Notes: generated by a model not told the origin, from the letters alone. Numbered from the stretch's first letter, positions 1,622 through 34,326 are shown. The stretch is DNA of 64,000 nucleotides from an uncultured Actinomycetes bacterium (GCA_963779025.1 CAVZWR010000019.1:321755-385754); one strand, 5' to 3'. A program made the numbers and translations.

Positions 1622-3152
1622 GTGCGCGAGCCGGAGCCCCGTCGGGGAGCTGCGGCGAACGATCGACCGGCTCGCGAGCGGCGATGCGCCGATCCTCGCG
1701 GGCCCCTGGACCGGCGACGAGATCGGCGAGCTCCTCTACTGGATCCCGTTCCTCCGCTGGGTCCAGACCGCGAACATCGGGCTGCGGGAGCGGCTGTACG
1801 TGCCGCGCGCGCCACAGCACGAGGTCTGGTACGCGGGGATCGGCGCGGGCACTGAAGCGCCCGAGGGCGCGAAGCGGCTCGACCCGCAGCTCGTCCTGGC
1901 CGCGCGCTCCGAGCTCGCCCGCCAGGATCCCGGCCTGCGCATCCAGCACCGTCTGCTCGAGTTCGCGCCGCTCCCCGGGGCCGGCCCGTACGAGGGCCCG
2001 TACGGTGTCGAGGCCTACCTCGCCGTGCTCGCCGGGCAGCCGGCCAGGGCGACCGGCGCAGAGAACGCCGACCCGGACGACCTGCTGGTCGCCGAGTCCT
2101 TCCTCGCGCGACCGCCGTTCGGACGCCTCGAGGTCGACCGGCCCCGCGCCGCCTGGGAGCGCCTGACCGAGCTCGAGGAGTACGAGGCACTGACCGAGAT
2201 GAGGTCGAACCAGCTCGTGCCGGTGCGTGAGCCGCTCGTCCTGATCTCGCAGATCCAGCGCTCGGGCGGGACGCTGCTCAGCCAGCTCTTCGACGGCCAC
2301 CCCGAGGTGCACGCCCACCCGCACGAGATCTGCATCGGCAAGCCGGACAAGTGGGACTGGCCGCCGCTCGACCTCGGCGCGCCCGAGACGTGGTTCGCGA
2401 CCCTGCACGAGCCGCTGCTCGCCGAGTGGATCGAGACGGGCTTCGTCAAGGATCTGACCGAGCTGCGCAAGCAGCGCGACCCGGACGTCTTTCCGTTCGT
2501 CTTCTCGCTCAAGCTCCAGCGCGCGATCTTCGAGCGCTGCGCGGCCGGCGCGACGACCGAGCGCGAGGTGCTCGACGCGTACTTCACCTCGTACTTCAAC
2601 GCCTGGCTCGACAACCACAACCTCTACACGGGCGCCAAGAAGGCCGTGGTCGGCTTCACGCCGCGGCTGGCGATGGAGCTCGACCGGGTCGAGCGGTTCT
2701 TCGCCGCCTACCCGGACGGCCTGCTGGTCTCGATCGTGCGCGACCCGCGCGGCTGGTACGCCTCTGCTCGGCGCCATCGCAAGTACTACGCCGACCTGGA
2801 GCAGTCGCTCGGGCTCTGGCGTGCCTCGACCGAGTCCGCGCTCGAGGCTGCGGACCGCCACGGCGACCGCGTGGTCGTCCTCACCTACGAGGCGCTGCTC
2901 GATGACCCGGAGGCGGCGATGTCGACGCTGGCCGCCCGGATCGGGATCGAAATGGCGCCGGACCTGCTCGTCCCGACCTTCAACAGCCGCCCGATCCGGG
3001 CCAACTCGTCCGATGCGGTCGAGCGCACCGGCATCCTTCCGGAGCGCCGCGACGCCTTTCGTGACGTCCTCACAGCTGACGAACTCGGGCAGATCGAGCG
3101 TCTGGCCGGCGACCTGTACGAACGGGCGACCCCGGTATCGTTCGCCACATGA
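1622..3152 (+). CDS. two-domain sulfotransferase: ~190 aa uncharacterised N-terminal domain plus PAPS-type sulfotransferase domain; start uncertain
   Basis: Open frame to TGA 3150-3152. P-loop-like motif LISQIQRSGGTLLSQL and 3'-phosphate-motif-like SIVRDPRGWYAS. N-domain contains APILAGPWTGDEIGELLYWIPFLRW. The only candidate start is GTG 1622 in a neighbouring frame (indel in the C-run at ~1637-1640); otherwise the ORF is fused to the preceding gene. Confidence 0.75.
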
Positions 3153-6286: not shown

Positions 6287-7312
6287 TCAGACCTGCCAGC
6301 CGTAGCCGCCGAGGTCGATTCCGGTCAGCTCGGCCGTGACCCGGTTGCTTTCCACGTAGCGGTCGCCGACGATTTCGGCGGCGACTCGGTGGAGCGACTT
6401 CTCGTTCCGCGCGGCCACGGTCTCCGGGATCGCGACCTCGAAGAAGCGATGGCGCGACAGGCGCTTCAGAGTTCGGTGCTTGTCGAGGTCGACAAGCGGC
6501 GCCGGGTTCACTTCCGAGCGCACGAACCGGTTCAGGTGCCGGAGCACGAGCCGGGACGTCGGCGACAGCGTCCCTTGGACGTGCGTGTCGTACGGCAGCG
6601 AGTCGAGCACGGTCTGCCCGAGCGGCCGCCCGGCGAAGTCGGCGATCGCGGTGACGAACTCGCGCGGCTCGCGGACGAACTGCTCGTACGTCCGTACCAG
6701 CAACGCCTCGGGGCCGAACAGCTCGCTGTAGCGCCGGATCAGGTGGTGGTACTCGAAGTGGCGGAAGTCGAACCACGGCACGCGCAGGTTCGTCGTGAAG
6801 GGCGGATCGAGGAACTCGCGCAGCGACTCGGGCCCGCCTGCCTTCACGTACCGGCTGTAGTTCGAGACGATGGCGCTCCGCTGCTCGCGGATCACGATCA
6901 GCACCTGCCCTTCAGGGAAGACCTGCCGCAGTCGGTCGGCGATCGCTCCGCTGTCGTAGCCGCCCGAGACGGCGTGCCCCGAGAGGCGCTCGAACGAGAC
7001 GACCGGAACGAGACCGTCCGCGAGGATCGGCGCGAACAGGGCGTCGAACTCGGCGCGGGAGGCGCGCGGGTCCCACTCCGACCACCGCGCGAGGATCAGT
7101 TTTCGCACCGGGTGGTCGTCCGCCGCCTTGCCAACCCAGCGGAGACCGGTTCCGTCGCCGGCGAAGAGGAATTTCTGGAGCCAGCTCGACCCCGTGCGGT
7201 GGTAGCCGACGTGGACGAGGATCGCGTCAGGCAACCGGGGACTCCACCGCGTCCCCCCGGGCGCGCGCTCGGCCACGATCCCGAGCGCGGCCCGTTCGAG
7301 CGTGTCGGCCAC
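6287..7312 (-). CDS. sulfotransferase family protein
   Basis: Intact 341 aa ORF. LVHVGYHRTGSSWLQKF resembles the PAPS 5'-phosphosulfate loop and LIVIREQRSAIVSNYS the 3'-phosphate motif. GTG 7312 gives an 86-nt overlap with the upstream gene, so a later start is possible. Confidence 0.8.
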   Translation of the reverse strand: MADTLERAALGIVAERAPGGTRWSPRLPDAILVHVGYHRTGSSWLQKFLFAGDGTGLRWVGKAADDHPVRKLILARWSEWDPRASRAEFDALFAPILADGLVPVVSFERLSGHAVSGGYDSGAIADRLRQVFPEGQVLIVIREQRSAIVSNYSRYVKAGGPESLREFLDPPFTTNLRVPWFDFRHFEYHHLIRRYSELFGPEALLVRTYEQFVREPREFVTAIADFAGRPLGQTVLDSLPYDTHVQGTLSPTSRLVLRHLNRFVRSEVNPAPLVDLDKHRTLKRLSRHRFFEVAIPETVAARNEKSLHRVAAEIVGDRYVESNRVTAELTGIDLGGYGWQV

Positions 7313-8624
7313 CGTGAGCGCGTTCTCCCCGGAACTGGTCGACGAGCAGCGGCTGGCCCGGGTGGCACTGCCGCATTGCCATGTGCAGGAACTGCGCGAT
7401 CCGCTCCGGGTCGGGACGGAAGGCCAGCAGCTCCGGCACCTTCGCGTGGATGTCCGCGAACGAGTGGACGTCGAGCGTGACCCCGAACCCGGCGTAGTAC
7501 GGGTCGCCGAGGGTCAGCACCGGCTTGTCGTAGAGGAGTGCCTCGAGCCCGACGGTCGAGCCGATCACGACCACCCCCTCAGAGCGGCGGATCAGCTCGT
7601 GCGTGCTCGTGTACGGGTTGACCAGCCGGACGTTCGGCCGCCGGCGCAGGCGGTGCAGGAGGCGGAAGGAGTTACGCCCGAGCGACATCGGGTGCTCCTT
7701 CAGCACGAGGTCGTGGCCCTGCGGCAATGCGTCCGCGACCTGCTCGACGAGCGAGGCCTGGTCGGCGCAGTGAGGAACGATGCGCTGGATCTTGTAGTCG
7801 TCGGTGACGTGGAGCGGGAAGTAGACGAACGGCCGTCCCGGGTCGAGCTTGTCGTAGAAGGGCCGCGCCGCCCGAGCCCGCATCCACTCCGAGGCGTTCT
7901 GGTGCAGCAGCCGCCAGGGGCGGAGGTAGTCGTTCTCACGGTCGTCGCCCAGCTTGCGCTCGACGTGCCCGGCGAAGACCTTCGCGCGGCGGGCCTCGAC
8001 GGGGACGCGCCGGAAGTCGCGGATCGGCGTCGCCGCCTGCGTGAACGACGTCCGGAACGCCTCGACCTCCCGGCGCTCCTCCGGGGTCAGCTCGCGCAGC
8101 TCCTCGGGCGGCGCGATCTTCGCGTCGAGCGTGTCGACGTAGACGCGCAGTGGGTTCGGGAAGATCGTGTGCAGGATGAAGAGCACCGGGATCGAGTGCG
8201 CGTTCGCGACCAGGTGCGCGACGATCCGGATCGTCTCGTTCCCGATCTCGGGCAGCGCCACGTCCGGCTTGGTCTCGGCGACGATCCGCTCCAGGGCCCG
8301 GAAGCGGTCGACGGTGCGCCGGATGCACCACTCCTCCGGCCGTCCCGCGCACGCCTTGTCGTTGCGGTAGACGTCGCGGAGGTGCGGGATCGGGTAGGTC
8401 GCCTCGATCCGGCGCACCTGCGCCTCGAGGTCGACCGGCGCGGCGAGCTCGGCGATCACGTCCTGGATCGCGCGCGCGTCGACGCCCCGGGAGCGCAGCT
8501 CCCTGGCAGCGCGCGGCGACTCGGTGAGATGGACGACCGAGTGGCCGCGCCGCTCGAGCTCGCGCCCGACGACGCCGTAGAACTCGCTCTCGTAGGTCTG
8601 GAGGCTGGTGATCAGGAACCGCAT
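7227..8624 (-). CDS. capsule polysaccharide biosynthesis protein, KpsS/KpsC (Capsule_synth)-like
   Basis: 465 aa ORF. RPFVYFPLHVTDDYKIQ, LVLKEHPMS and VVVIGSTVGLEALLYDKPVLTLGDPYYAGFG match the signature blocks I recall for KpsS/KpsC. The last ~35 aa are Arg/Ala-rich and overlap the next gene, so the true C-terminus may be in another frame. Confidence 0.75.
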   Translation of the reverse strand: MRFLITSLQTYESEFYGVVGRELERRGHSVVHLTESPRAARELRSRGVDARAIQDVIAELAAPVDLEAQVRRIEATYPIPHLRDVYRNDKACAGRPEEWCIRRTVDRFRALERIVAETKPDVALPEIGNETIRIVAHLVANAHSIPVLFILHTIFPNPLRVYVDTLDAKIAPPEELRELTPEERREVEAFRTSFTQAATPIRDFRRVPVEARRAKVFAGHVERKLGDDRENDYLRPWRLLHQNASEWMRARAARPFYDKLDPGRPFVYFPLHVTDDYKIQRIVPHCADQASLVEQVADALPQGHDLVLKEHPMSLGRNSFRLLHRLRRRPNVRLVNPYTSTHELIRRSEGVVVIGSTVGLEALLYDKPVLTLGDPYYAGFGVTLDVHSFADIHAKVPELLAFRPDPERIAQFLHMAMRQCHPGQPLLVDQFRGERAHGGRHARTGRARDRGRARARGDAVESPVA

Positions 8625-10625: not shown

Positions 10626-11855
10626 GTGGCGATCGGTGCCAATAACCTCCGGCAGCCACGGCTGCTCGTTCTCAACCAGTACTACTGGCCGGGCATCGAG
10701 GCGACGGCCAACCTTCTGACCGAGCTCTGCGAGGCGCTCGCCGCCACCCACGACGTGACCGTGATCACCGGCGCGTCCCGCGGCCTGCCCCGCCGCCAGG
10801 AGCGCAACGGCGTGAAGATCGTGCGCGTCCGCTCGACCGCCTACGACCGCGCGCACCTCCCGGGCCGGGCGATGAACTACCTCTCGTACGCGCTCGGGGT
10901 GGTCTGGAAGGCGATGCTCTCCCGCCGGCCCGACCTCGTCGTCTGCATGACCGACCCGCCGTTCGTCGGCTCGATCGCGCGCCTCGTCGCCGCGCGCTTC
11001 CGGGCGCCGCTGCTCGTGGTGATGCAGGACGTATTCCCGGAGATCGCAGTCAAGCTCGGCCGACTTCGCAACCCGATCGTCGTCGGCTTCCTGCGCATGC
11101 TGATCGACCCGTCGCTGCGCGCCGCCGACCGCGTGATCGTGATCGGCGAGACGATGAAGCAGCGCGTCGCCGCGAAGGGCGTCTCGCCCGAACGAATCCG
11201 CGTGATTCCGAACTGGGGCGACGCCGCGAGCGTCGTACCGAAGCCGCACGACAACGAGTGGGCGCGCCGGCACAAGCTGGCGAAGAGCTTCGTCGTCATG
11301 CACTCCGGGAACATCGGCCACGCGCAGAACCTCGACGCGCTGATCCGCGCCTCGACCTTCCTCCGCGACCTCGACGACCTCGCCGTGGTCCTGATCGGCT
11401 CCGGCGCACGCCGCGGCGAGCTCGTCGCCCTGACGCGGACGCTGGAGGCGGACAAGGTCGAGATCCTCGGCTACCAGGAGCGCTCGATCCTCTCCGAGTC
11501 GCTCTCGACCGCGGACGTCCACGTCGTCGGGCTCGTGCGCGGGCTGGCCGGCTACGTCGTCCCGAGCCGCGTCTACGGGATCCTCGCCGCCGGCCGGCCG
11601 GTGATCGCCGCCACCGATGTCGAGAGCGAGACGGCGCAGCTCGTCACCGAGGTCGGCTGCGGCGTCGTCGTGCCGCCGGGGAACCCGTTCGCGCTCGCGG
11701 CCGCGATCCGCGCCGCCCACGACGGCGAGTACGACCTCGAGGGGATGGGCCGCCGCGCCCGCGCGTTCGCGGAGCAGGAGGCCGACCGCTCGATCGCGAT
11801 GCGCCGCTACGAGGCGGTCATCGCCGAGCTCGAGGGGGCCGGTGCTCGCGGTTGA
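10626..11855 (+). CDS. glycosyltransferase family 4, WcaI-like
   Basis: Intact 409 aa. LLVLNQYYWPGIEATANLLTELCEAL, VMHSGNIGHAQNL, GYVVPSRVYGILAAGRPVIA. Confidence 0.85.
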   Translation: MAIGANNLRQPRLLVLNQYYWPGIEATANLLTELCEALAATHDVTVITGASRGLPRRQERNGVKIVRVRSTAYDRAHLPGRAMNYLSYALGVVWKAMLSRRPDLVVCMTDPPFVGSIARLVAARFRAPLLVVMQDVFPEIAVKLGRLRNPIVVGFLRMLIDPSLRAADRVIVIGETMKQRVAAKGVSPERIRVIPNWGDAASVVPKPHDNEWARRHKLAKSFVVMHSGNIGHAQNLDALIRASTFLRDLDDLAVVLIGSGARRGELVALTRTLEADKVEILGYQERSILSESLSTADVHVVGLVRGLAGYVVPSRVYGILAAGRPVIAATDVESETAQLVTEVGCGVVVPPGNPFALAAAIRAAHDGEYDLEGMGRRARAFAEQEADRSIAMRRYEAVIAELEGAGARG

Positions 11856-12956
11856 GGTCGTGTTCTGGGCGTCGCTGGCCGCCCTCGTCTGGACGCACGC
11901 CGGTTACCCGCTCGCAGCCGCGGCGGCCGCCCGTGCGCGGCGGCGGGGCGTCCGCGCCGGTGACGTCCTCCCGAGCGTGACGCTGATCGTCGCCGCCCAC
12001 GACGAGGAGGCGGTGATCGAGCGGCGCATCGAGAACCTGCTCGCGCTCGACTACCCGCCTGCGTCGCTGGACATCGTGATCGCGTCCGATGCCTCCGGCG
12101 ACCGCACGGACGAGCTGGTCGAGGCGGTCGCGGCGCGCGAGCCGCGAGTGCGGCTGCTGCGCTGCCCGCGCGGCGGCAAGGTGGCGGCGCAGGACCGGGC
12201 GGTGCGCGAGAGCTCCGCCGAGGTCGTCGCGTTCGGCGACGCGAACGCGATGTGGTCGCCGGACGCGCTCCGCCTGCTCGTCCGCTCCTTCGCCGATCCG
12301 GACGTCGCGTACGTCTGCGGGCGGCTCGTCCTGACCGACGCCGCCGGGGACAACCGCGAAGGCGTCTACTGGCGGTTCGAGACCTGGCTGCGCGAGCAGG
12401 AGTCGGCGCTCGGCTCGGTCACCGGCGGGAACGGGGCGATCTACGCCGTGCGCCGGTCCGACTACGTCGAGGTCGACCCGCGGTTCGGCCACGACCTCTC
12501 CCTGCCGTACGTGATGGTGCAGCGCGGCCGGCGCGCGGTCTACGACCCCGAGGCGATCGCGCGCGAGCGGCCGACGCCGGGGATCGGCACCGAGTACCGG
12601 CGCAAGGTGCGCATGTTCGAGCACTGCTGGCTGATCGTCGCCCGCGGGAAGATGCTCCGCCGGCAGCCGCCGCTCTACTTCGCCGAGATCCTCTCGCACC
12701 GGCACCTGCGGTATGCCTCGGGGCTGCTCCACCTCGTCGCTGCTGGGGACGAACGTCGCGCTCGTCGCCGCCCGCGAGGGCTGGGTCTACGACGTCGCGC
12801 TCGGCCTCCAGGTCGCGTTCGTCGCGGTCGCCTTCGCCCGGCCGTCGATCGCCGCGCTACTACGCCCTCGTCACCTGGGCGACGGTGGTCGCGCTCTGGA
12901 ACTACCTGCGCCGCGGCGTGCCCGCGACGTGGGACGCCGCCGAGGGCACGCGCTGA
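11842..12956 (+). CDS. membrane-embedded GT2 glycosyltransferase (synthase-like architecture); frame-disrupted (2)
   Basis: GTG 11842 overlaps the upstream stop. N-terminal TM segment, then VTLIVAAHDEEAVIERRIENLLALDYP, IVIASDASGDRT, GGNGAIYAVRR, EYRRKVRM. The C-terminal TM region is read in two further frames (changes near 12735 and 12850). Confidence 0.75.
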
Positions 12957-13531
12957 ACCGCGCTCTGGACGTCGCGGGCGCGGGCGCCGTCCTGCTCGTG
13001 ACCAGCCCGCTGATCGGGCTCGCGGCGCTCGCGGTCAAGCTCGAGGACGGCGGCCCGGTCTTCTACCGGCAGGTGCGCGTGGGGAAGGACGGCCGCGACT
13101 TCGAGCTGCTGAAGCTGCGGACGATGATCGTCGGCGCGGAAACGCAGGGGGCCGGCTACGCGGTCGCGGAGGGCGATTCGCGGATCACCCGCGCCGGCCG
13201 GCTCCTCCGCCGCCTCTCGATCGACGAGCTGCCGCAGCTCTGGAACGTCCTCCGCGGCGAGATGAGCCTCGTCGGCCCGCGACCGACGCTCCGCTACCAG
13301 GTCGACCGCTACGACGAGCGCCAGCGCCACCGCCTCGACGTGAAGCCGGGCCTGACCGGCTGGGCGCAGGTGAACGGCCGCGCCGCGCTGCCGTGGGAGG
13401 AGCGCATCGAGCTCGACCTCTGGTACGTCGAGCACCGCTCGACGCGGCTCGACCTGAAGATCCTCGCGCTGACGCCGCTCGCGCTGTTCCGCGGCACCTA
13501 CAAAGGGGCAACGGGCGGCTGGACTCCGTAG
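12929..13531 (+). CDS. small phosphoglycosyl transferase (bacterial sugar transferase, PglC / WcaJ C-domain type)
   Basis: [77 protein letters not shown]. The GTG 12929 start is inferred. Confidence 0.85.
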
Positions 13532-15449: not shown

Positions 15450-15465
15450 CCCTACCCTCTCGTTC

Positions 15466-16975: not shown

Positions 16976-16988
16976 CTACATTCCCCCC

Positions 16989-17993
16989 GTGACAGCCGTC
17001 CTCTTCACCTGCGCCGGGCAGCGCGTGGACGTCGTCACCGCGTTCTCGCGGGCGGGCGGGCACACCGATCGCGGTCGACGCGAACCCGCTCGCGCCGGCG
17101 ATCTACCACGCCGACGTGCCACGCGGTCGTTCCGCGGATCGACGACCCGGCCTACCTGCCGGCGCTCCAGGAGCTGATCGCCGAGCACGACGTGAAGCTC
17201 GTCGTCCCGCTCACCGACCTCGACCAGCTGCTGCTCGCCGAGCACCGCGACGAGATCGAAGCGGTCGTGCTGCTCCCCGATCCCGACGTCGTTCGGCGCA
17301 CCGCGCGACAAGTACCTCGCGCATCTCTTCTTCGAGGAGCGCGGCATCCCGTCGCCGCCGAGCTGGCTCCCCGAGGAGTTGCCGGACGACCTCGAGTTCC
17401 CGGTGCTCGTCAAGGCGCGGTTCGGGTTCGGCTCGCGCGACATCTTCCGCGCGAACGACCGCCGCGAGCTCGAGTTCTTCCTCGGCTACTCGCAGGCCGA
17501 CTCGTTCGTCCAGCGCGTCTGCCCGGGCGAGGAGTTCTCGATCGACGTCTTCTGCGATCTCGACAGCCGCTGCCTGAACTCGATCCCGCGGACGATGATC
17601 GAGTCGAAGGGCGGCGAGTCGATCAAGGGGATGACGATCAAGGACCCGGAGCTGATCGACTTCGGCCGCCTCGTCGCGGAGGAGCTCGGGATCCGCGGGC
17701 CGGCGAACGTGCAGTGCTTCCGCGTCGCTCCCGGCCGCCACGAGGTCACGGACGTCAACCCGCGCTTCGGCGGCGCCTTCCCGCTCCCGCGCGCGGCCGG
17801 CAGCCGCTACCCGGAGCTCGCGCTCGCGCTGGCGCGGGGCGAGCGCCCGGAGCCGCGGCTCGGCGAGTTCCGGGAGGGCGTCGTGATGACCCGCTTCTTC
17901 TCGCACCTCTCGCTGACCGCCGACGGCGGCGGGCGGCTGGAGCCGTTTGCGGAGGAGTTGCCCGAGCCGGTCGCGGGCGAGCCCGCCGCCTAG
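16989..17993 (+). CDS. ATP-grasp domain protein (carboxylate-amine ligase type); frame-disrupted (3)
   Basis: Starts at GTG 16989. Three single-base insertions relative to the 15466 copy (near 17065, 17119, 17305) restore the original frame. FPVLVKARFGFGSRDIF, EEFSIDVFCD, ANVQCF..VTDVNPRFGGAFPL. Confidence 0.8.
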
Positions 17994-19524: not shown

Positions 19525-20993
19525 GTGGAGGGAGTGAGGAGGGGTTGCATCGCGCTGTGCCTGGTCGCGGCGTTCCTCGCGGGCTGCGGCGGCAAGCACG
19601 CGGCGCCCCCGCCGCCGACCGTCGTAAAGCCGGTGCACCACCGGCCCGTAGTGAAGCGCCACCGCGTGGTCGTCACCGTCCTCGACGGCGACACGGGCCG
19701 GCGGGTGCACGGCGCCCTCGTCCGCATCGGTCGGCCTCGCCGACCGCGCGAACCCGAAAGGGAACGCCGAGCTCAGCCTGCGGCGGCTCGCCCCGCTCGT
19801 CGTGACGGTCCGCGCGCGCGGCTACGGCGACCTCGAGCTGCGGCTCCCCTTCCAGCGCAAGCGCCGCGTCGTCGTCCGCGTCTACCACGAGAACCTCCAG
19901 TGGCCGATGTACGGCGCGACCCCCGCGCGGACGCAGGCGCACCTGGCAATCCGCGTCAGGCCGCCCTTCCGCGTCGTCTGGAGCCGCGGCCTCGGCACCC
20001 TGATCGAGTTCCCGGCGGTCGTCTCGGACGGCGTCGCGTACATCGGGAACAGCCACGGCACCGTGCGGGCGATCTCGATGCGGAACGGGCGCGTGCTCTG
20101 GCGCCGCGACATCCGCCACGGGAAGATGGCCGCCTCGCCCGCGGTCGTCGGCGACGACCTGGTCGTCCACGGGATGGACGGCGTCGTCCGCGTGCTCGAC
20201 CGGCGCACCGGGCGCCGGCCGTTGGCGCGTTCCACGTCGGCTCGCCGATCGAGTCGTCACCGCTCGTCCGCGACCGGATCGACTACTTCGGCGCCTGGAA
20301 CGGCAACGTCTACGCGCTCGACCTGCGCACGCGAAAGCTGCGCTGGGTCTACGGCTCCGGCTGGAAGATCACCTCCAGCGCCGCGATCGCCGACCGGACG
20401 CTCTACATCGGCAACTACGGCGGCAGGCTGCTCGCCCTCGCGCCCGGGAGCGGGCGGCTGCGCTGGTCGGCCGGCGTCAACGGGCGGATCTACGGGACGC
20501 CCGCGGTCTGGGCCGGCCGCGTGTTCGTGCCCTCCTCCGACGGCGGCTCGCTGACCGCCTTCACGACGCGCGGCGCGCTACCTCTGGCGCGATCCACACG
20601 GGCGGCTACGTCTACTCCTCACCGGCCGTCTGGGCGCGGTCACGTCTACTTCGGCTCCTACAACGGACGGCTGTACAGCGCCTCGGCGCGCACCGGGAGC
20701 GTCCGCTGGTCGGTGCAGACCGGCGGGCCGGTCTCGGGCGCCCCGGCGGTCGTCGACGGGGTCGCCTACGCCGGCAGCTTCGCGAACCGGATCGTCGGCG
20801 TCGACGCCGACAGCGGCCGCACCTGCTCCGCTTCCCGCACGGCGAGTACGTGCCCGTCTCCGGGAGCGGCGGCCGGCTGCTCCTGCACGGCTATTCGCGT
20901 GTGTACGCGGTGGAGCCATCGCAATCCCGGTCGAAATCACTCGTTCGAGTGACAGCCGCGCGTCGAGCCGTATTTGCAGGGAAATCTCCTTGA
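19525..20993 (+). CDS. PQQ-like beta-propeller repeat lipoprotein with N-terminal Ig-like region; frame-disrupted (~7)
   Basis: Lipobox LVAAFLAGC. Propeller blades (AVVSDGVAYIGNSHGTVRAISMRNGRVLW, YFGAWNGNVYALDLRTRKLRW, GHVYFGSYNGRLYSASARTGSVRW, APAVVDGVAYAGSF) are spread over three frames. End is 20952 or 20993. Confidence 0.7.
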
Positions 20994-21050: not shown

Positions 21051-21057
21051 ACAATTG

Positions 21058-21541
21058 ATGAATCGCAAGCGGATTGGCGGGTTCGGTGCGCTCGCGCTCG
21101 CCGGGGTCGTCGTGGTTGTGCTCGCGGTCACGCCGCTCGGGGGGCGCGGCGGTCCGCCACGTCTCGCGAGTTGATCGCGCCGACGTCGAAGTCGGCGGTC
21201 GCCGACGTGAACGCTCGACAACTGGGTTCTGGACACCGTCGACGTTCTCGAGGGACGGCTTTTCGAAGGTGACGAACCCGGAGTTCGGGGTCTACTGCCT
21301 GTCCGGCCGGACGAATCCGGACAAGCAGCATGCTGCAGTTGACGGTCGACGCGCAGCACAGCGATGTCGGCGGGGGTACCGCCGATGTGGGACCGCGTCG
21401 GCACCGACCTGCGGGCCGGGCGTCGTACGAGGTCGTCACGTACTGCCCGGCATCCAGCTCAGCGGACGGAGGCTCCGACTCCGAAGTCAGCCGGAGGGGC
21501 CCCTGTGTGACGACTGGTCGCCTTCTACGCGGAGGCATTAG
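21058..21541 (+). CDS. small secreted or membrane-anchored hypothetical protein, tandem paralog 1; reading frame not uniquely resolvable
   Basis: SD plus ATG, N-terminal MNRKRIGGFGALALAGVVVVVLAVTPLGG. Nucleotide-level homology to 21550-22053 over the whole length, with several indels. No family recognised. Confidence 0.5.
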
Positions 21542-21549
21542 GCGGTGAG

Positions 21550-22053
21550 ATGAATCGGCAAGCGGATTGCGGGGCTTGGTGCGCTCGCATCGTCGCCAGT
21601 GGTCGTCGCCGTGCTCGCCGTCACACCGCTCGGCGGCGCGGCGGTCCGCCACGTTTCGCAGTTGATCGCGCCGACGTCGAAGTCGGCGGTGGCCGACGTG
21701 AACGCGTTCCGGCTGGGTTCTGGACGACCGCTCGACGTTCTCGAGGGACGGCTGTTCGAAGTCGGTGACGAACCCGGAGCACGGGCATCTACTGCCTGCC
21801 TCGCCGACCGGGCGAACCCGGACAAGAGCATGCTGCAGGTGACGGTCGACGCGCAGCACAGCGCTGTCGGCGGGGGACCGTCACGTGGGACCGCTCGTCA
21901 CCGAACTGCGGGCCGGGTGTCCTACGAGGTCGTACACGTACTGCCCCGGTGGCAGTCATCAGATGGCCGGCATCGAGGCTCCGACTCCGAAGGCCGCCGA
22001 GGGGAATCCTGTGTGACGACGTCGCCTTCTACGCGGAGGCGTACGTCCGGTAG
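21550..22053 (+). CDS. small secreted or membrane-anchored hypothetical protein, tandem paralog 2; frame-disrupted
   Basis: ATG 21550. Longest consistent frame gives ..VVVAVLAVTPLGGAAVRHVSQLIAPTSKSAVADVNAFRLGSGRPLDVLEGRLFE... Shared blocks with paralog 1: GV/IYCL, NPDK.MLQ.TVDAQHS.VGGG, CDD..FYAEA. Stop at 22051-22053. Confidence 0.5.
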
Positions 22054-22108: not shown

Positions 22109-23009
22109 CTACGGCGCGTTCGCTGCGACCCGTGCGAACGCCGGCCGACCGGCGACGTCGAGCGGGCGGAACCGCCGGGTCACGACGGCGCCCAGCCGCC
22201 GGCTGATCATCCGCACCACGCGCCCGTTCGCCACGCCGTAGAGCCGGTACTCGCGGACCGCCGGGCTCCAGAGCGCGGACGGGCTCCCCGGGGACAGGTG
22301 GGCGACACAGCCGTCCTTGTACTTGCCGCGCAGGTCACGCCCCGTGAGGAGGTGGAGGCAGCCTGCCGGCCCGCGGAGGAGCGCCGCCCAGCCGGTCGCG
22401 GTGCGGAAGAGCGCGGGCGGGCCGAGCGTGGCCGCGGGAGCGACGCTGATCACGACGCGGTTGCCGGGGTCGCCCGCGAAGGCCGTGCCGTCGCTGCCCG
22501 GGCACCTCGGTCGCGGTGCGGAGCTTGACGCAGGACCTGCCCGGCGGCCGGGCAGGCGTTCGTCGCCGGCTCGAACCGCAGGCTGTACAGCAGGACGAGC
22601 GCGCCGTTCTCGTCGACGGCGAAGCTCGGCGCGAAGCTGCCGGCGGTCGCGCGTGCCGCGTCCTCCGGCGAGCCGAGCTGGACGGTGTAGGGGACGGCTG
22701 CCTTCTCGGCCAGGGAGCCGCCGGCGCCGACCGCGAAGCGATGCACCGTTCCGGAGAGGCCGTCGGCGTTCAGCGTCGGCTGGTCGTAGACGTAGAGGAT
22801 CGACCCGCGGCGGACGGGGGCCGGCTGCGAGCCCGCCCAGGAGGCGACCGGAGCGCTGAAGCGGACGCCGTCGCTCGAGGTGAGCAGGGACGAGGTTCCG
22901 TCGCCGGAAACGGCGAGCAGGATACGCGACCGGCCGCGTGGCCGGCTCGGCCGCCGGGAACCGCCAGTGCGAGTGCGCACAAGGCCAGGAGCAGGACTTT
23001 TCCGCTCAT
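22109..23009 (-). CDS. secreted hypothetical protein; frame-disrupted (2)
   Basis: ATG 23009 with signal peptide MSGKVLLLALCALALAVPG. One Asp-box-like SSDGVRF. Three track fragments join colinearly (frame changes near 22930 and 22535). Confidence 0.6.
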
Positions 23010-23041: not shown

Positions 23042-24351
23042 ATGCGCCTCGTCTTCGTCGCATCTGCCACCGTCGCGCTCCTCGCCGTTTCCGCCGCCGG
23101 ATCGGCCGTGCGCCCCACCTCCCGCTGCGCTGATCGCGAAGGGAATTGCCCGCGCCGACCTGACGCCGGCGGAGAAGGCGGAGTACGCCGCCGTGCTCGC
23201 GCGCGCGCGCTCGGAGGTCAAGCGGCTGCCGAAGGCCCGCGCCGATCTGCTGCGGAAGGTGATCGCGGACGTCGCCGCGCAATGGCGCTCCTACACGAGC
23301 CCGCGCGCTCTCGCTCTCTTCTCGACGCTCGCCTTCAACGAGCGCTGGCTCGCCGGGCACGCGGTCGAGGGGAGCCACCCCGACCTGACCGGCGACGACG
23401 GCGTCGTCTACCGGTTCTTCTGGTCGCACGGCTACGTCTTCCACCCGCTCGCGAACTTCGCGAAGCTGAACGAGCTCGCGGCGCGAGGCGACGACGAAGG
23501 TGCCGTCCGGCTCGCGCAGGCACTGCTCGCGCGGGCGATCCCGCGCGGCGACGGGCTCGTCTGGGAGTACGAGTTCCCGTTCGCGTCCGGCCGCGCGCCG
23601 TGGACGTCCGGCATGGTGCAGGCCGTCGCCGCCCAGGCGCTCGCCCGCGCCGGCGACCATGCTCAGCGACCAGACGCTGCTCGACGCGGCCGACGCCGCC
23701 TACGCCGCGGTGCCCGGGCTGCTCTCGTCGGGCTCGCCCGCCAGGCCGTGGGTCGCGCTCTACAGCTTCGACCGCGTTCCGGTTCTGAACGCGCAGCTCC
23801 AGGCGGCGCTTTCCCTGGGCGACTACGCCGAGCTCACCGGCGACCCTGACGCGCAGGCCTTCGCCGATCGCCTGACCACGTCCGCGCAGACCCTGCTGCC
23901 GCGCTTCGACACCGGCTACTGGTCACGCTATTCGCTCCATGGTGACGATTCGCCCCTCCACTACCATGACTACGTGATCGCGCTGCTCCGCAAGCTCGCC
24001 GCCCGCACGGGCGACGCGGCTTGGAGCGACACGGCCGACCGCTTCCTGGCCTACGAGACGCAGCCGCCGGTGCTCAAGCTGGGCGGCACCCCGGCGACGC
24101 TCCGTCGTCACGCGAGCGCGAAGTTCAGGTTCTGGCTCTCGAAGACCTCGACGGTGACGCTCCGGGTCGGGAAGGCGGTGCTCAGCGGGACGCTCGGCCA
24201 CGGCTCGCACACCTTCGTCTGGGAGCCGAAGAACGCCGTCCCGGGCACGTACCACCCGCGGCTGACCGCCGTCCCGGTGATGGGCCCATCGATTCAGAAG
24301 GCTCTTCCGCCGGTCAAGATCGCCCACGGCAAGGCCCTGAAGCCTCGATGA
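23042..24351 (+). CDS. secreted D-glucuronyl C5-epimerase-like protein (C5-epim_C type) with C-terminal beta-sandwich; frame-disrupted (2)
   Basis: Signal peptide MRLVFVASATVALLAVSAAGSA. Blocks YVFHPLANFAKLN, RAPWTSGMVQAVAAQALARA, VLNAQLQAALSLGDY and FDTGYWSRYSL..HYHDYVIALLRKL parallel the heparan-sulfate C5-epimerase C-domain. Frame changes near 23120 and 23655. Confidence 0.75.
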
Positions 24352-25093
24352 GGCTCGTCGGGCCGGCCGCCCTGGCGGCGGTGCTCGTGCTCGCGCTGCC
24401 GGCGCAGAGCGCGAACCGCCTCCAGCCGGTCCCGATCCTCATGTATCACGTCGTCACGAATGCCGCCGGCGAACGCGCCGTACCCGGAGCTCTACGTGCC
24501 GCGGGCGAACTTCGCGGCGCAGGTCGGCTGGCTCGCGCGCCACGGCTACCACGCGGTGACGCTCCAGCGGGTCTTCGACTCCTGGCGCGGGGTCCGGAAG
24601 CTGCCTTCGAGACCGATCGTCTTCTCGTTCGACGACGGCTACCTCAGCCAGGTGAGGAATGCGCTGCCGCTGCTCCAGGCGCGCCACTGGGCCGGCGTCC
24701 TCAATCTCGAGGTCCGGAACCTCGAGCCGGTGTGGGGGATCCGCCCGCCCGGGGTCCGCAAGCTGATCAAGGCCGGGTGGGAGATCGACGCGCACACGCT
24801 CACCCATCCCGACCTGACCGCCGTCGGCGCCGCCCAGCTCCACGACGAGGTCGCCGGGTCGCGCGATGCGATTCGCAAGAAGTTCCACGTCCCGGTGAAC
24901 TTCTTCTGCTACCCGGCCGGGCGCTACGACGACACGGTGGTCGCGGCCGTCCAGGCGGCGGGCTACCTCGGCGCGACGACGACGAACTACGGGCTCGCGC
25001 GCGCCGGGTGACCTGTACACGCTGAACCGTGTGCGCATCAACGGCACGGACAGCATCTCCGCGTTCGCCCAGAAGATCGAGGCGCTCCACTGA
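24348..25093 (+). CDS. secreted polysaccharide deacetylase (NodB homology / CE4); frame-disrupted (2)
   Basis: ATGA overlap with the upstream stop. Signal peptide MRLVGPAALAAVLVLALPAQSA. PILMYHVV, IVFSFDDGYLSQ, IDAHTLTHPDL, FFCYPAGRY. Frame changes near 24465 and 25005. Confidence 0.8.
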
Positions 25094-25104
25094 GCTGGAG
25101 ATGG

Positions 25105-26405
25105 GTGCTCGCGGGCGCGGGGGTGTTCCTGCTGCTCCTGGTCGGCGCCGGGCTCGGCTACTACTTCTACGTCCAGGGCAAGTCGGGCGACATCCGCGGC
25201 TCCTCGACGGTCGAGTTCGTCCCGACCGAGGCGCCGCCGACGCCGCCCCCGCCGCCGGCGACGCGGGAGACGAACCCGGTCACGCACCGAGCCGGAGGCG
25301 CTGACCCGCGTCGACTGGCCGACGTTCGGCTACGACGATCGCCGGCTGCGGTACCTGCCGAGCAGGCTGGCGCCGCCGTTCCGAATCGCCTGGGTCTTCC
25401 ACGGGCGGCACCTGCTCGAGTTCCCGCCGGCGGTCGCCTACGGGCGCGCCTACATCGCGAACAACCCGGGAGTGCTCTATGCGGTGCAGGCCGCCACCGG
25501 GCGCACGAGTTGGCTCTACAAGTCGGGCCGCTGCGCCGCCGCCTCGCCGGCGGTCGCGGGGGAGCTCGTCTACATGGCGTTCCTGAACCTCCGCCGCAAG
25601 GGGCAGGACGCCTGTAACGCGGAGCCGTCCACGCCGGGCCTGAACGGCCAGGTGGTCGCGCTCGACGCGCGCACGGGCCGGGTTCGCTGGCGGCGGACGA
25701 TCGGCGCGAGCGAGACCTCGCCGCTCGTCGCGAACGGACGCGTCTACGTCGGCGACTGGCACGGCGACGTCTTCGCGCTCGACGCGAAGACCGGGAAGGT
25801 GATCTGGCGCTACCGCACCGGCGGCCAGGTGAAGGGAGCGCTTGCGCTCTCCGGCCGGCGCCTCTACGTCGGCTCATACGACCACCACCTCTACGCGCTG
25901 CGCGCCGGGAACGGGCCGGCTGATCTGGAAGGCGTCGTCCCAGGAGCGCTTCGGCGGCCGCGGGACGTTCTACTCGACGCCCGGCCGCCGCCTACGGCCG
26001 CGTCTACATCGGCTCGACCGACCAGAAGGTCTACTCGTTCGGAGCGACGAGCGGCCGAGGTGCGCTGGTCGCAGTCCACCGGCGGCTACGTCTACGGCTC
26101 ACCCGCGATCTGGAACAAGCTCGTCCTCGATCGGCTCCTACTCGAAGCGCTTCTACGCGCTCGACGCTGCGACCGGCGACATCAAGTGGCAGTTCAAGGC
26201 GAACGGCCCGATCTCCGGCTCGGCGACGGTGCTCGGGAACATCGTCTACTTCTCGACGCTGGAGGGGCGGACGTACGGGCTCGACGCGAAGACCGGGAAG
26301 CAGGTCTGGAGCTTCCCGGACGGCAAGTACTCGCCGCTCGTCGCCGGGCCGGAGCGCGTCTACCTCGTCGGGTACACGAAGATGTACGGCCTGGTCACCA
26401 GCTAG
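25105..26405 (+). CDS. PQQ-like beta-propeller repeat protein with N-terminal TM anchor; frame-disrupted (at least 5)
   Basis: TM segment AGAGVFLLLLVGAGLGYYFYV and a Pro-rich linker. Blades: AYGRAYIANNPGVLYAVQAATGRTSW, NGRVYVGDWHGDVFALDAKTGKVIW, RRLYVGSYDHHLYAL, GRVYIGSTDQKVYSF, NIVYFSTLEGRTYGLDAKTGKQVW. Confidence 0.7.
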
Positions 26406-26484
26406 GGTTGCCGAGCATGAGCCGTAGGCTTGACGGAGACTCCGGGGAGCGCAGGCGGCGGCTCTGCCGGCGCCGGAGCGGGGC

Positions 26485-27382
26485 GTGAGCACGGCGCCTC
26501 CCCCTGACGTCGACGCCGAGCAGGAAGTCGATTTCGGCCGCTACTGGCGGGCGATCGCCGCGCGCTGGTGGCTCCCCGTCGGCGGCCTCGTCATCGGCCT
26601 GATCGTCGGCTACCTCGTTTCCCTCGGGACGAACTCCACGAACTACAAGGCGACGGCGCTGGTCTACCTCGGGCAGCCGCTCGCCCCTGACAGCGCGGCG
26701 CCCGTCTCGAGCTCGCCGACGACGCTCGGGCTCGTCTCCAACCTGGTCACGAACTCGACCACGACGCGCAAGGTCGCGAGGAAGGTCGGCCTGAAGGAGG
26801 GGAGGCTCAGCCACCACATCACGACGAAGCCGGTGCTCGGCGTGACCGCGACGAAGGTCGGGACGCCCGCGCCGCTACTCGCCATCACCGTCAGCGGAAC
26901 GCCGGCGAAGAAGGTCAGGAACGCCGCCAACGCGCTCGCCGACGTCGCGATCAAGGCCGTGGGCGGCTACTCGGACGTCAAGATCGCGAAGCTCCGCGAG
27001 CAGATCGACTTCGACGACAAGAGCATCGCCCGCAACAACGACCGCTTCGCGCTCGCGCAGGAGCAGCAGAAGGCGATCCTCGGCGACAAGTCGCTCTCGC
27101 CGACCGAGAAGCTGCTCCTGCTCGCGAACATCAACACGACCCTCGTCACGGTCGAGCAGCGGCTCGGCCAGCTCGAGACCGACCGGCTCTCGCGCGCAGC
27201 AGTTCCTCTCGCTGGCGGAGAACGTCGAGCGGCCGTCGGTGCGCTCGCATGCGGTCGCGGTCAAGTCCGCCGGGCCGAACAGCCGCACCGGCGCCGCCGT
27301 CGGCGGGCTGATCGGGCTGATCATCGGCGTCCTCGTCGCGCTGCTCTGGGACCCGGTCGCCGCGCGCCGCACCACGGCCTGA
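26485..27382 (+). CDS. polysaccharide co-polymerase / chain-length determinant (Wzz type, no kinase domain); frame-disrupted (1)
   Basis: N-terminal TM WWLPVGGLVIGLIVGYLV. Coiled-coil-like middle region KIAKLREQIDFDDKSIARNNDRFALAQEQQKAILGD. C-terminal TM AAVGGLIGLIIGVLVALLW follows a frame change near 27195. The stop abuts the next ATG. Confidence 0.6.
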
Positions 27383-28329
27383 TGCTCGAGGGCAAACGCT
27401 TGGGGGTGGTCGTACCGGCCCACGACGAGGAGGCCCTGCTTCCGCAGACGCTGGCGGGGATCCCCGGGTTCGTCGACCGGATCTACGTGGTCGACGACGC
27501 CTCCCGCGACGCGACCCGGGAACGGGCGGAGGCTGCGGCCGCAGGCGATCCGCGGGTCGAGGTGCTCACGCACGACAAGAACCGCGGGGTCGGCGCGGCG
27601 ATCGTGACCGGCTACCGGCGCGCGCTCGAGGAGCGCGTCGACGTGACCTGCGTGATGGCGGCCGACAACCAGATGGACCCGGACGACCTCCAGGCGATCG
27701 CCGAGCCGGTCGCCCGCGGCGAGGTCGACTACGCGAAGGCGAACCGGCTCATCACGGGGCAGGCCTGGGAGCTGATCCCGAGGCACCGCTACCTCGGCAA
27801 CGCCGTCCTCTCGCTGCTGACGAAGATCGCCTCCGGCTACTGGCACGTCGCCGACTCGCAGTCGGGCTACACGGCGCTCGGGCTCGACACGCTCGAGAAG
27901 CTCGACCTCGACCGCATCTACCCGCGCTACGGGTTCCCGAACGACATGCTCGTCCACCTGAACATCGTCAACGCGCGGGTGCGCGACGTACCCTCCCGGC
28001 CGATCTACGGCGTCGGCGAGCGGTCGGGGATCAAGCTCCACTCGGTCGTCCCGAAGATCTCGTGGCTGCTCGTGAAGGCGTTCTTCTGGCGGCTGCGGGA
28101 GAAGTACGTGATCCGCGACTTCCACCCGCTCGTCTTCTTCTACACGTTCGGGATCGTGATGAGCCTCGCGGGCCTCGGGCTCGGGATCGCGCTCGTCGTG
28201 CTCCGCGCCCTCGGGCACGACATCACGGCGGCGACCGGCGTGCTCGTCGCGCTGCTGCTGATCTTCGGCTCGCAGTTCACGCTGTTCGCGATGTGGTTCG
28301 ACATGGAGTCGAACAAGGACCTGCGCTAG
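27382..28329 (+). CDS. GT2 polyprenyl-phosphate glycosyltransferase (GtrB/ArnC/DPM1-like)
   Basis: Intact 315 aa. VVVPAHDEEALL, YVVDDASRDAT, VMAADNQMDP, and two C-terminal TM helices. Confidence 0.8.
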   Translation: MLEGKRLGVVVPAHDEEALLPQTLAGIPGFVDRIYVVDDASRDATRERAEAAAAGDPRVEVLTHDKNRGVGAAIVTGYRRALEERVDVTCVMAADNQMDPDDLQAIAEPVARGEVDYAKANRLITGQAWELIPRHRYLGNAVLSLLTKIASGYWHVADSQSGYTALGLDTLEKLDLDRIYPRYGFPNDMLVHLNIVNARVRDVPSRPIYGVGERSGIKLHSVVPKISWLLVKAFFWRLREKYVIRDFHPLVFFYTFGIVMSLAGLGLGIALVVLRALGHDITAATGVLVALLLIFGSQFTLFAMWFDMESNKDLR

Positions 28330-29594: not shown

Positions 29595-31159
29595 GCGCCG
29601 TACAGTACCGCCACTCTGGCCGTCCACCTGAGCCGTCTGACCCCGCTCTCGTTCCTCGAGCGCAGTGCGCTCGCCTTCCCCGAGCGCCCGGCGGTCGTCG
29701 ACGGCGAGACGCGGCTGACCTGGGCGGAGTTCCGCGAGCGGACGAGGCGGCTCGCCCTGCGCGCTTCAGGAGGACGGGATCGAGCGCGGCGACCGGGTCG
29801 CGTTCCTCGCCCCGAACGTGACCCCGCTGCTCGATGCGCACTTCGGCGTGCCGGGCGCCGGCGCCGTCCTGGTCGCGATCAACACGCGGCTGATGCCGGA
29901 GGAGATCGCCTACATCCTCGAGCACTCGGGGTCACGGACGCTCGTCGTCCACGAGTCACTCGCGCACCTCGTCGAGGGTGCGCCGGTCGAGCGGCTGCTC
30001 GTCTGCGGCGAGGGCGGCGACTACGAGGACTTCCTGGCCTCGGCCGGCCCGGGCGAGCCGGAGCCGCAGGCTCGAGGACGAGGACGACCCGATCTCGATC
30101 AACTACACGAGCGGGACGACCGGCCGGCCGAAAGGCGTCGTCTACACGCATCGCGGCGGGTACCTGAACGCCCTCTCGGAGGCGCTGCACGCCGGGCTCG
30201 ACTCCCGCTCGGTCTACCTCTGGACGCTGCCGATGTTCCACTGCAACGGCTGGTGCTTCCCCTGGGCGGTGACGGCGGTCGGGGGGACGCACGTCTGCCT
30301 GCCGAAGGTCGACCCCGGCCTGATCTGGCAGCTGATCGAGGAGGAGGGGGTCACGCACCTGAACGGCGCGCCGACCGTGCTCGTCATGCTCCTGCACGAC
30401 CCGGCGGCGAAGCCGCTGGCGAAGCCGGTGCGGATCACGACCGCGGCCGCGCCGCCGTCGCCGGCCGTGATCGAGCGCACCGAGGCGCTCGGCTTCCTGG
30501 TCAACCACGTCTACGGCCTGACCGAGACGTACGGCCCGATCACGATCTGCGAGTGGCACCCCGAGTGGGACGGCCTCGACGTCCACCGGCGGGCGCGGCT
30601 GAAGGCGCGGCAGGGCGTGAACATGATCACCGCCGACACACTCCGCGTCGTCGACGCGGAGCTGAACGACGTGCCCGCCGACGGCCAGACGATCGGCGAG
30701 GTCGTGATGAGGGGCAACAACGTGATGAAGGGCTACTTCGCCGACGAGGCGGCGACGGCGGAGGCGTTCCGCGGCGGGTGGTTCCACTCGGGCGACCTCG
30801 GCGTCATGCACCCCGACGGATACATCGAGCTCCGCGACCGGATGAAGGACATCATCATCTCGGGCGGCGAGAACATCTCGACGATCGAGGTCGAGCAGGC
30901 GCTCGTCCGCCACCCGGACGTGCTCGAGGCCGCCGTGATCGCGATTCCGCACGAGAAGTGGGGCGAGCGCCCGAAGGCCTTCGTGACGCTGCGGCCCGGG
31001 GCAACGCTCGACGCGGAGGAGCTGATCGCCTTCGCCCGCGAGACCCTGCCCGGCTTCAAGGCCCCCGACGAGATCGAGTTCTGCGAGCTCCCGAAGACCT
31101 CGACCGGCAAGGTCAAGAAGTACGAGCTGCGTGACCGGGAGCGGGAGCGCCGGGCCTAG
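29593..31159 (+). CDS. acyl-CoA synthetase / AMP-dependent ligase; frame-disrupted (2-3), start uncertain
   Basis: INYTSGTTGRPKGVVYTHRG, YGLTETYGP, WFHSGDLG, ISGGENIS, KTSTGKVKKYELR. N-terminal region LTPLSFLERSALAFPERPAVV. Frame changes near 29755 and 30070. ATG 29593 needs one more indel at ~29620; the alternative start is CTG 29616. Confidence 0.85.
29602..29607 (-). promoter_or_regulatory. -10-like box, leaderless arrangement
   Basis: TACTGT (minus strand) lies 7 nt upstream of ATG 29594. Confidence 0.35.
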
Positions 31160-34319: not shown

Positions 34320-34326
34320 TTCCTTC

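Follow-up and report, generated by a model that had tools for sequence, protein, structure and literature searches.

A Leu-type relative of D-glucuronyl C5-epimerase in a putative surface-polysaccharide locus of an uncultured actinomycete

A described counterpart of the gene analysed here is human D-glucuronyl C5-epimerase (GLCE), whose catalytic residues are E499, Y500, N510, Y560, and Y578 (PMC13308652), Tyr578 serving as the base and Glu499 donating the proton from the other face (PMC12834895). Prokaryotic PF06662 candidates with predicted signal peptides in polysaccharide clusters were catalogued in 2011 (Raedts et al., PMC3068255), two Conexibacter woesei (Thermoleophilia) proteins among them (PMC3068255); a PF06662 enzyme from Bermanella marisrubri has been assayed (Raedts 2013, as cited in PMC12834895) and is reported, by sequence alignment, to share the GLCE mechanism (PMC13308652). 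Our gene lies at 23042-24351 of a 64,000-nucleotide stretch from an uncultured Actinomycetes bacterium (GCA_963779025.1, CAVZWR010000019.1:321755-385754), called the window throughout and always meant at its full length (G+C ~72% across 64 kb); genes for a CE4 deacetylase, a beta-propeller, a Wzz-like protein, and a GT2 glycosyltransferase follow it.

We read 23042-28329 as the "late", extracytoplasmic end of a locus for a surface polysaccharide, conserved in Gaiellales (Thermoleophilia, Actinomycetota), the order of the source soil actinobacterium, and its GLCE-fold enzyme as a candidate epimerase with a non-canonical partner; this reading has in our estimate a probability of about 0.45. Outside the membrane, the module probably acts on uronic acid bound in the polymer. 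We favour epimerisation with a partner residue other than the canonical one, and lyase, non-uronate, or non-catalytic roles are serious rivals. The window family is related to GLCE, has kept most of the active site, and has failed one defining catalytic feature. The finding is a correct result at annotation level, the PF06662 family being routinely annotated already; new here are the documentation of an invariant Glu-to-Leu replacement in a large clade and of a conserved tie to propeller, Wzz-like, GT2, and ATP-grasp genes, and variably to CE4 and sulfotransferase genes.

The epimerase-like protein and its active site

23042..24351, + strand: predicted secreted GLCE-fold protein (PF06662 C5-epim_C); Pfam, tblastn with P0001, AlphaFold2, Foldseek; two frameshifts.

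Most of the window was read as stitched translations across frameshifts for the Pfam and NCBIfam scans, and residue numbering follows P0001, an intact metagenomic homologue of 435 amino acids (aa) that is 97% identical to the window protein. An earlier note, made from the DNA alone, had proposed a secreted C5-epimerase-like protein here on the strength of a signal peptide and three GLCE motif blocks. The stitched product matches PF06662 with E=5.4e-19 (68.9 bits, cutoff 23.3), in agreement with that proposal, and all three blocks align to human GLCE as proposed (profile search of the PDB, hhalign). PF06662 was the sole Pfam match in 40 of 40 family members tested; a relaxed scan (E<=1) of 40 family members returned no lyase family and no other family. 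Since phmmer of the stitched protein against the PDB gave nothing relevant, a profile was needed to reach GLCE there (6HZZ, E=2.4e-6).

The AlphaFold2 model of P0001 (40-sequence alignment; predicted local distance difference test score, pLDDT, 87.6; predicted template-modelling score, pTM, 0.83) has 12 helices, predicted to form an (alpha/alpha)6-type barrel, and then a C-terminal beta-sandwich. Its seven best Foldseek matches in the PDB are human and zebrafish GLCE (6I02, 6HZZ, 6I01, 4PXQ; E ~1e-5, 22-23% identity), followed by GH76, GH8, and AGE-family barrels; the alignment to GLCE covers the helical domain only (211 aligned columns), and the N-terminus of the model consists of helices and short hairpins. 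An N-terminal hydrophobic segment in intact orthologues, consistent with a signal peptide by a hydropathy heuristic only, fits the signal peptide that had been proposed.

GLCE residues were mapped onto P0001 by three alignment methods, including the PDB profile search and hhalign, and 83 related loci were fetched for residue and +/-10 kb neighbourhood checks. Four of the five catalytic positions are kept in the window protein: Tyr578 maps to Y307, Tyr560 to Y296, Tyr500 to Y240, and Asn510 to N249. The fifth, Glu499, falls on L239, and the whole pattern reads H134 L239 Y240 D243 N249 Y296 Y307 H308. Y240, N249, Y296, and Y307 are essentially invariant (found in 243 or more of the 268 family proteins, the others having gaps), and DTG and W187/S189/Q193 are near-invariant in the same 268; with a dN/dS of 0.15 between the window gene and its orthologue in locus L001, this argues that the active site is conserved. 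The assignment of position 239 to Glu499 is secure, because the motifs W-x-R-E-Y (Glu-type bacterial paralogues), W-V-A-L-Y (here), and W-Y-E-E-Y (GLCE) align gap-free.

Several observations weigh against the favoured reading. At the Glu499 position the window and each of the 83 related loci fetched have Leu; in the 268 family proteins position 239 is L in 217, E in 29, I in 8, H in 5, and Q in 1; and Glu499 is invariant in 121/121 canonical GLCE sequences, a set gathered by searching with the catalytic fragment of human GLCE, whose hits were almost only eukaryotic fragments and included no labelled Bermanella sequence. The active-site motif of UDP-glucose/UDP-N-acetylmannosamine (UDP-ManNAc) dehydrogenases is absent from the window and from +/-10 kb of the 83 loci (regular-expression search; two spurious hits only), so that a uronic acid in the window polymer is putative. 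A sub-clade (L022-L029) has no CE4 gene, and putative fusions that could have linked the partners are read-through artefacts.

The earlier note had looked to a GLCE-like fold and to the catalytic Tyr/Glu, and had named missing catalytic residues as what would speak against it. Fold and Tyr were recovered; Glu499 was not, its replacement by Leu being in part the outcome so named.

With one acid/base residue of the epimerase gone and the Tyr/Asn/His set kept, the GLCE-fold protein might be a polysaccharide lyase or depolymerase, in which Tyr307 would take the C5 proton and the enolate, facing no acid on the opposite side, would collapse by beta-elimination; it would then trim or release the polymer, like AlgL, BcsZ, PssZ, and PelA in other exopolysaccharide operons. 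The conserved core holds no other recognisable glycanase, the operon-encoded glycanases BcsZ/CMCax and PssZ turn up lower in the Foldseek ranking, and the predicted helical barrel followed by a beta-sandwich resembles the (alpha/alpha)n-toroid lyases. However, the top 50 Foldseek matches contain no polysaccharide-lyase structure, no Pfam lyase family appears at E<=1, GLCE is clearly the best match, and variation at position 239 (L/E/H/I) in an otherwise highly conserved family fits a flexible partner no less than a change of reaction. We regard a lyase as unlikely, and as an alternative to be taken seriously.

A protein inert toward uronates, such as a carbohydrate-binding or scaffold subunit of export, or an enzyme that uses the GLCE fold on non-uronate substrates, is in our view rather improbable: three Tyr, the Asn, DTG, W187/S189/Q193, and other cleft-type residues would hardly stay near-invariant in 268 sequences, the kept residues are the exact GLCE catalytic set minus one, and the dN/dS is low (0.15). 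It would nonetheless account for the missing Glu, for the lack of a uronic-acid-precursor dehydrogenase motif in the conserved locus, and for the constant position beside non-enzymatic-looking propeller and co-polymerase proteins, and the fold is common to neutral-sugar 2-epimerases and GH8/GH76 enzymes.

If the protein is an epimerase, as we favour, a non-canonical proton partner is required because the canonical Glu499 is Leu. The Sec-secreted enzyme would bind the polymer outside the membrane, Tyr307 (equivalent to GLCE Tyr578) would take the hexuronate C5 proton, and re-protonation from the other face, most likely resulting in epimerisation, could involve the conserved His134 or His308 as candidate partners. 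Every family member has at least one of His134, Glu239, and His308, where ~2.6 members with none would be expected under independence with kinship ignored; this is a lead and not evidence. In a rough neighbour-joining tree, which is not relied on, the Glu-type proteins form one clade and Leu as a simple derived loss is not borne out.

The two Glu-type PF06662 paralogues whose surroundings were inspected, at L084 (635-2200) and L085 (1646-3184), carry an N-terminal PG_binding_1 peptidoglycan-binding domain, and the one at L085 adjoins another C5-epim_C gene; this suggests a cell-wall-associated branch of the PF06662 family.

Integrity of the record

None of the three genes within 23042-26405 (epimerase-like, CE4, propeller) is an intact open reading frame (ORF); each has 1-nt frameshifts. 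Coding in 23042-24351 runs through three frames, which tblastn with P0001 spans at 23042-23122, 23103-23672, and 23662-24348, and a codon-position GC plot gives a continuous + strand coding signal over the same interval, with frame switches near 23100 and 23620 and more of them inside the CE4 and propeller genes. The shifts of the epimerase-like gene lie near 23117-23129 and 23657-23659. The second (23655-23662) is an apparent single-base insertion giving CATG at a site where relatives read GAC-CAG/CTG-CTC, and basecalling that errs systematically at a methylation motif could account for it. The CE4 gene has two shifts (~24465 and ~25003) and the propeller gene (25105-26405) at least 3-4; over 10.6-28.3 kb (~17.7 kb), with intact proteins of orthologous loci as guides, no fewer than 16 frame changes were counted, about one per kb.

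So many changes within ~17.7 kb of the locus, and a shift at 23657-23659 whose CATG context lies outside any homopolymer, could mean that the frameshifts are real and the operon is a decaying set of pseudogenes. We consider this extremely unlikely. Frame changes are spread over all 64 kb (examples at 29616-31147, 32009-34499, and 36419-38510), non-glycan genes included, and in a non-glycan AMP-binding ligase the Pfam alignment continues straight through the frame junctions; the codon-position GC signal is strong on either side of each shift; and tblastn with P0001 found no premature stops or deletions in the frame-shifted segments of the epimerase-like gene. The 96%-identical locus L005, on a contig ('MFD07639.bin.2.20') of a metagenome-assembled genome (MAG), has frameshifts in other genes and at other sites, its epimerase-like gene being intact, and L001, L004, L006, and L010 are frameshift-free at the locus. 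With orthologues up to 97% identical intact, and a dN/dS of 0.15 for the epimerase-like gene against L001, the window frameshifts are most likely assembly errors. The record looks like an unpolished long-read assembly with shifts throughout the window, and its ORF-based annotation is therefore fragmented.

Two proteins, P0116 (propeller plus C5-epim_C) and P0111 (C5-epim_C plus CE4), were considered as natural fusions and rejected: what separates their parts is out-of-frame junk rich in Arg and Pro, and a signal peptide sits internally, as expected of frameshift read-through. Public protein collections thus hold chimeric ORFs (P0116, P0111) from frameshifted long-read MAGs.

A tandem duplication of ~1.5 kb (14740-15863 / 16259-17380) takes in the stretch of a GSCFA (SGNH-like) gene that codes for the C-terminal part, together with ~130 codons from the start of the ATP-grasp gene; L005 (96% identical) has a single copy of this unit, and the duplication could be real and recent or an assembly artefact.

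The operon, its distribution, and the polymer

24348..25090, + strand: predicted secreted CE4 deacetylase, PgaB/IcaB/PplD type; PF01522 E=3.7e-21; start overlaps the upstream stop; two frameshifts.
25105..26405, + strand: predicted membrane-anchored PQQ-like (BamB-like) beta-propeller; N-terminal transmembrane (TM) helix, Pro-rich linker; at least 3-4 frameshifts.
26485..27385, + strand: putative Wzz-like polysaccharide co-polymerase, ~304 aa; two terminal TM helices; frameshift near 27193.
27382..28329, + strand: GT2 with C-terminal TM helices, AglJ/PpgS/ArnC-like; PF00535 2.8e-22; last conserved operon gene.

The start of the CE4 gene overlaps the stop of the epimerase-like gene as ATGA (...CGATGAGG..., ATG 24348-24350, TGA 24349-24351), so that the coupling at 24348-24351 described in the earlier note stands, as does the secreted CE4 deacetylase that it placed here (PF01522 match, N-terminal hydrophobic segment). 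The motifs MYH, FDDG, HTLTH (HxxxH), and YPAGR (YPxGR) align with 6DQ3, and the best PDB matches are 6DQ3, 4HD5/4V33, and PgaB 3VUS/4F9D; among NCBIfam models the PgaB N-terminal region is matched with 2.5e-25 (88.8 bits, under the equivalog cutoff of 321.9) and IcaB with 36.9 bits (under the cutoff of 248). Intact CE4 orthologues have an N-terminal hydrophobic segment consistent with a signal peptide (hydropathy heuristic only), and the N-terminal signal segments of both proteins agree with the extracytoplasmic site suggested for the epimerase-like protein and CE4. We predict CE4 to be a catalytically active polysaccharide de-N-acetylase outside the cytoplasm.

The propeller matches PQQ_2 (1.5e-45) and Beta-prop_ACSF4 (5.4e-50) in Pfam and BamB in NCBIfam (1.4e-44, under cutoff); with a TM segment at 1-22 of an orthologue, consistent with a signal anchor (hydropathy heuristic), it is the membrane-anchored propeller that had been expected. 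The polysaccharide co-polymerase that the earlier note saw behind it was recovered in part: the product, 93% identical by tblastn in two frames to a 304-aa protein of L001, has two terminal TM segments (27-54 and 270-298), the match to Wzz PF02706 is only sub-threshold (E=7e-4, 20.3 bits, cutoff 25.5), and NCBIfam gave no match. The GT2 at 27382-28329 is a probable polyprenyl-phosphate sugar synthase, judging from NCBIfam matches to AglJ (6.5e-19) and PpgS (9e-10), both under their cutoffs.

Relatives of the epimerase-like protein number more than 1,100 in a 90%-identity clustered database, some under the NCBI name 'D-glucuronyl C5-epimerase family protein [Gaiellaceae bacterium]'; a 50% clustering gives 2,761 matching representatives (E<=1e-3), and a scan of species-representative genomes found 165 loci. 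Every locus listed comes from a MAG, and most carry the label Gaiellaceae, Gaiellales, Thermoleophilia, or Actinomycetota. The locus as such is kept in about 35 Gaiellales/Thermoleophilia MAGs. The kept order, with orthologues at least ~46% identical, is ATP-grasp, (propeller), epimerase-like, (CE4), propeller, Wzz-like, GT2; some 33 loci keep epimerase-like, propeller, Wzz-like, GT2, ATP-grasp, and Bac_transf genes, GT2 being present in 32 and CE4 in 27. CE4 is dispensable in part of the clade. A sulfotransferase homologue lies within the operon in L010, L017, and L020 (tblastn ~48% identity, locus positions 7521-8879, between ATP-grasp and the first PQQ-like propeller, PQQ1), so that CE4 and sulfotransferase genes alike are variably present across the clade. 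More distant paralogues of the epimerase-like gene occupy other contexts.

22112..23007, - strand: divergent, putatively secreted protein of ~297 aa, no family match; tblastn 91% to a 297-aa protein of L001, two frames; one frameshift.
19666..20969, + strand: PQQ1, 5' of the epimerase-like gene; PQQ_2, Beta-prop_ACSF4; tblastn in four frames; three frameshifts.
16989..17987, + strand: ATP-grasp ligase (PylC-like N, ATP-grasp_3); Pfam; 33 syntenic loci.
11842..13528, + strand: membrane GT2 (GT2a), then a small Bac_transf initiating phosphoglycosyl transferase; PF00535 1.1e-21, PF02397 2.4e-64.
6290..7327, - strand: predicted cytoplasmic sulfotransferase (PF13469/PF00685); Pfam; downstream of Capsule_synth and GT4 genes.
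2238..3053, + strand: second sulfotransferase (PF13469); Pfam 4.1e-14; homologue at the edge of L015.
34327-35257, + strand: orthologue of human UXS1 (UDP-glucuronate decarboxylase); E=2e-88 to 4GLL/2B69.

The 5' part of the window carries the two PF13469 sulfotransferases, a Capsule_synth gene, and GT4s, then FkbM methyltransferases, the membrane GT2, the small Bac_transf, GSCFA proteins, the ATP-grasp ligase, and PQQ1; the epimerase-like, CE4, TM-anchored propeller, two-TM Wzz-like, and C-terminal-TM GT2 genes follow, and unrelated metabolic genes (28.4-31.1 kb) separate them from a second glycan region with the UXS1 orthologue, Wzy_C, a Wzx-like flippase, a second Bac_transf, and GDP-sugar enzymes. 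The PF13469 matches accord with the cytoplasmic placing of both sulfotransferases in the earlier note. The ATP-grasp ligase, which matches a PRK12767-like NCBIfam model (5e-76, under cutoff), is among the genes most often kept beside the epimerase-like gene; 11842-13528 gave weak NCBIfam matches to PgaC/NodC/MftF and one to EPS_sugtrans (1.4e-78). The divergent 297-aa protein, conserved only in the closest relatives, has an N-terminal hydrophobic segment and no Pfam or NCBIfam match.

Between PQQ1 and the divergent 297-aa gene lie two ~490-nt tandem copies (21057-21536 / 21549-22040; 83.6% identical) of lower G+C and weak codon signal, each with a small ORF at its start that resembles a signal peptide (MNRKRIGGFGALALAGVVVVVLAVTPLGG...); L005 has the repeat and L001 does not. 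No flippase or polymerase is recognisable in the conserved epimerase operon itself. At 36419-47751 a second glycan-assembly region holds a Wzy_C polymerase/ligase (38604-39838, - strand), a Wzx-like flippase (39964-41239), several GT4s, and a WbaP-like Bac_transf with a CoA_binding_3 domain (46435-47751). A secreted protein of ~824 aa without a Pfam match (32009-34499, - strand, about four frameshifts) adjoins an FkbM methyltransferase and the UXS1 orthologue; it could be a glycan-active enzyme of a kind not yet characterised. Two adjacent, highly similar paralogous genes occupy 61988-63999 (+ strand), their translations starting KVAYYSP(L/M)PPSRSGIADYSALL....

As to the polymer, the UXS1 orthologue consumes UDP-glucuronic acid (UDP-GlcA), which implies that the organism makes UDP-GlcA, and UDP-xylose metabolism too. 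In the capsule of Campylobacter an ATP-grasp domain is responsible for amidating the carboxylate of GlcA (PMC11800379), and VPS, a Vibrio polysaccharide, includes an amino-uronic acid that is epimerised at C5 and joined to glycine by an amide link (PMC3901696); as support for a uronic acid here these precedents are analogies only. The wealth of GT4, GT2, FkbM-methyltransferase, and ATP-grasp genes, with Bac_transf initiation, points to a complex heteropolysaccharide.

The earlier note had seen in this locus a glycosaminoglycan (GAG)-style module of deacetylation, sulfation, and epimerisation. As logic this is reasonable, deacetylase, sulfotransferase, and epimerase-like genes being co-located in the window locus and animal NDST using a (beta/alpha)7 deacetylase domain as well (in NDST1 a metal-dependent fold with His-His-Asp; bioRxiv 10.1101/2023.08.30.555497). 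A heparosan-like backbone of GlcA and N-acetylglucosamine (GlcNAc) was not borne out, Pfam and NCBIfam scans of the window having returned no named heparosan synthase and the dehydrogenase motif being absent. A heparan-sulfate-like product is possible, with little in its favour. That the locus makes such a GAG outright, its GlcA-GlcNAc backbone undergoing N-deacetylation, sulfation, and conversion of GlcA to iduronic acid (IdoA), is very unlikely: besides the missing synthase and UDP-glucose dehydrogenase motif, so many GT4/GT2/FkbM genes with Bac_transf initiation speak for a heteropolysaccharide, the window protein lacks the canonical Glu, and CE4 and sulfotransferases come and go across the clade, even though a PF06662 protein, a deacetylase, and sulfotransferases share a single locus with a Capsule_synth (KpsC/S-like) gene nearby.

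Proposed mechanism and comparison with known systems

In the scheme that we favour, Bac_transf and the GT4/GT2 glycosyltransferases would build a lipid-linked glycan in the cytoplasm, where methyltransferases and the ATP-grasp ligase would decorate it, as would, in some lineages including that of the window, sulfotransferases dependent on 3'-phosphoadenosine-5'-phosphosulfate (PAPS). Outside the membrane, in addition to the action of the GLCE-fold enzyme described above, the PgaB/IcaB/PplD-type CE4 would strip N-acetyl groups, the membrane-anchored propeller and Wzz-like co-polymerase would organise the machinery, and the polyprenyl-phosphate GT2 would provide a lipid-linked sugar for extracytoplasmic decoration. 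The data show domain identities, fold, residue conservation, synteny, and purifying selection; the substrate, the reaction outcome, and the roles of propeller and co-polymerase are what we infer. In its most specific form the proposal would be that Gaiellales make a sulfated, partly N-deacetylated surface polysaccharide with C5-epimerised uronic acid of the IdoA/guluronic acid (GulA) type, by way of an extracellular, Glu-less GLCE branch working with a Tyr/His pair, sulfation taking place before export; we think this improbable as a whole. If true, it would be a bacterial, extracytoplasmic, and mechanistically distinct counterpart of heparan-sulfate maturation.

Should the Leu-type GLCE-fold enzymes prove to be active as epimerases, the GLCE scaffold can support C5-epimerisation through another acid/base partner, and soluble secreted bacterial enzymes could be screened for chemo-enzymatic synthesis of heparin and GAG analogues, a stated goal of the field (PMC3068255, PMC12834895). 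Should they be lyases or binders, the widespread annotation as 'D-glucuronyl C5-epimerase family protein' (>1,100 clusters at 90% identity) is misleading. Either way the locus is a conserved envelope-polysaccharide module of an abundant, poorly cultured soil lineage.

GLCE (6HZZ, 6I01, 4PXQ) shares with the window protein the PF06662 domain, is its best structural match, and is alike in the predicted site of action outside the cytoplasm; the equivalents of Tyr500, Asn510, Tyr560, Tyr578, and His579 and the DTG motif are kept in the window family, whereas Glu499 is replaced by Leu. GLCE has N-terminal beta-hairpin and beta-barrel domains that serve dimerisation and the substrate cleft, in place of which the P0001 model appears to have extra N-terminal helices (which would complete the 12-helix barrel) and a C-terminal beta-sandwich; GLCE is a Golgi type II membrane protein, the window protein a predicted Sec-secreted protein of a monoderm. 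With the bacterial PF06662 candidates of 2011 it has a predicted signal peptide and the polysaccharide-cluster setting in common. The Bermanella enzyme, for which the GLCE mechanism is reported, is by its published description set apart from the window clade, which is without the Glu, and the Glu-type PF06662 paralogues belong to the same hidden Markov model family but keep the Glu and stand outside this type of operon.

The window CE4 aligns over its full length with 6DQ3 and Bacillus BA0330/BC0361 and with PgaB in the N-terminal part; unlike PgaB it is a single 248-aa domain without the PgaB C-terminal domain, and it falls under every NCBIfam equivalog cutoff.

The alginate C5-epimerases AlgG/AlgE epimerise uronates at the polymer level after export, beside other periplasmic or extracellular tailoring enzymes. 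They belong to synthase-dependent Gram-negative systems and have a right-handed beta-helix, an unrelated fold with an unrelated catalytic set, but their functional logic is the same as that proposed here for the window module.

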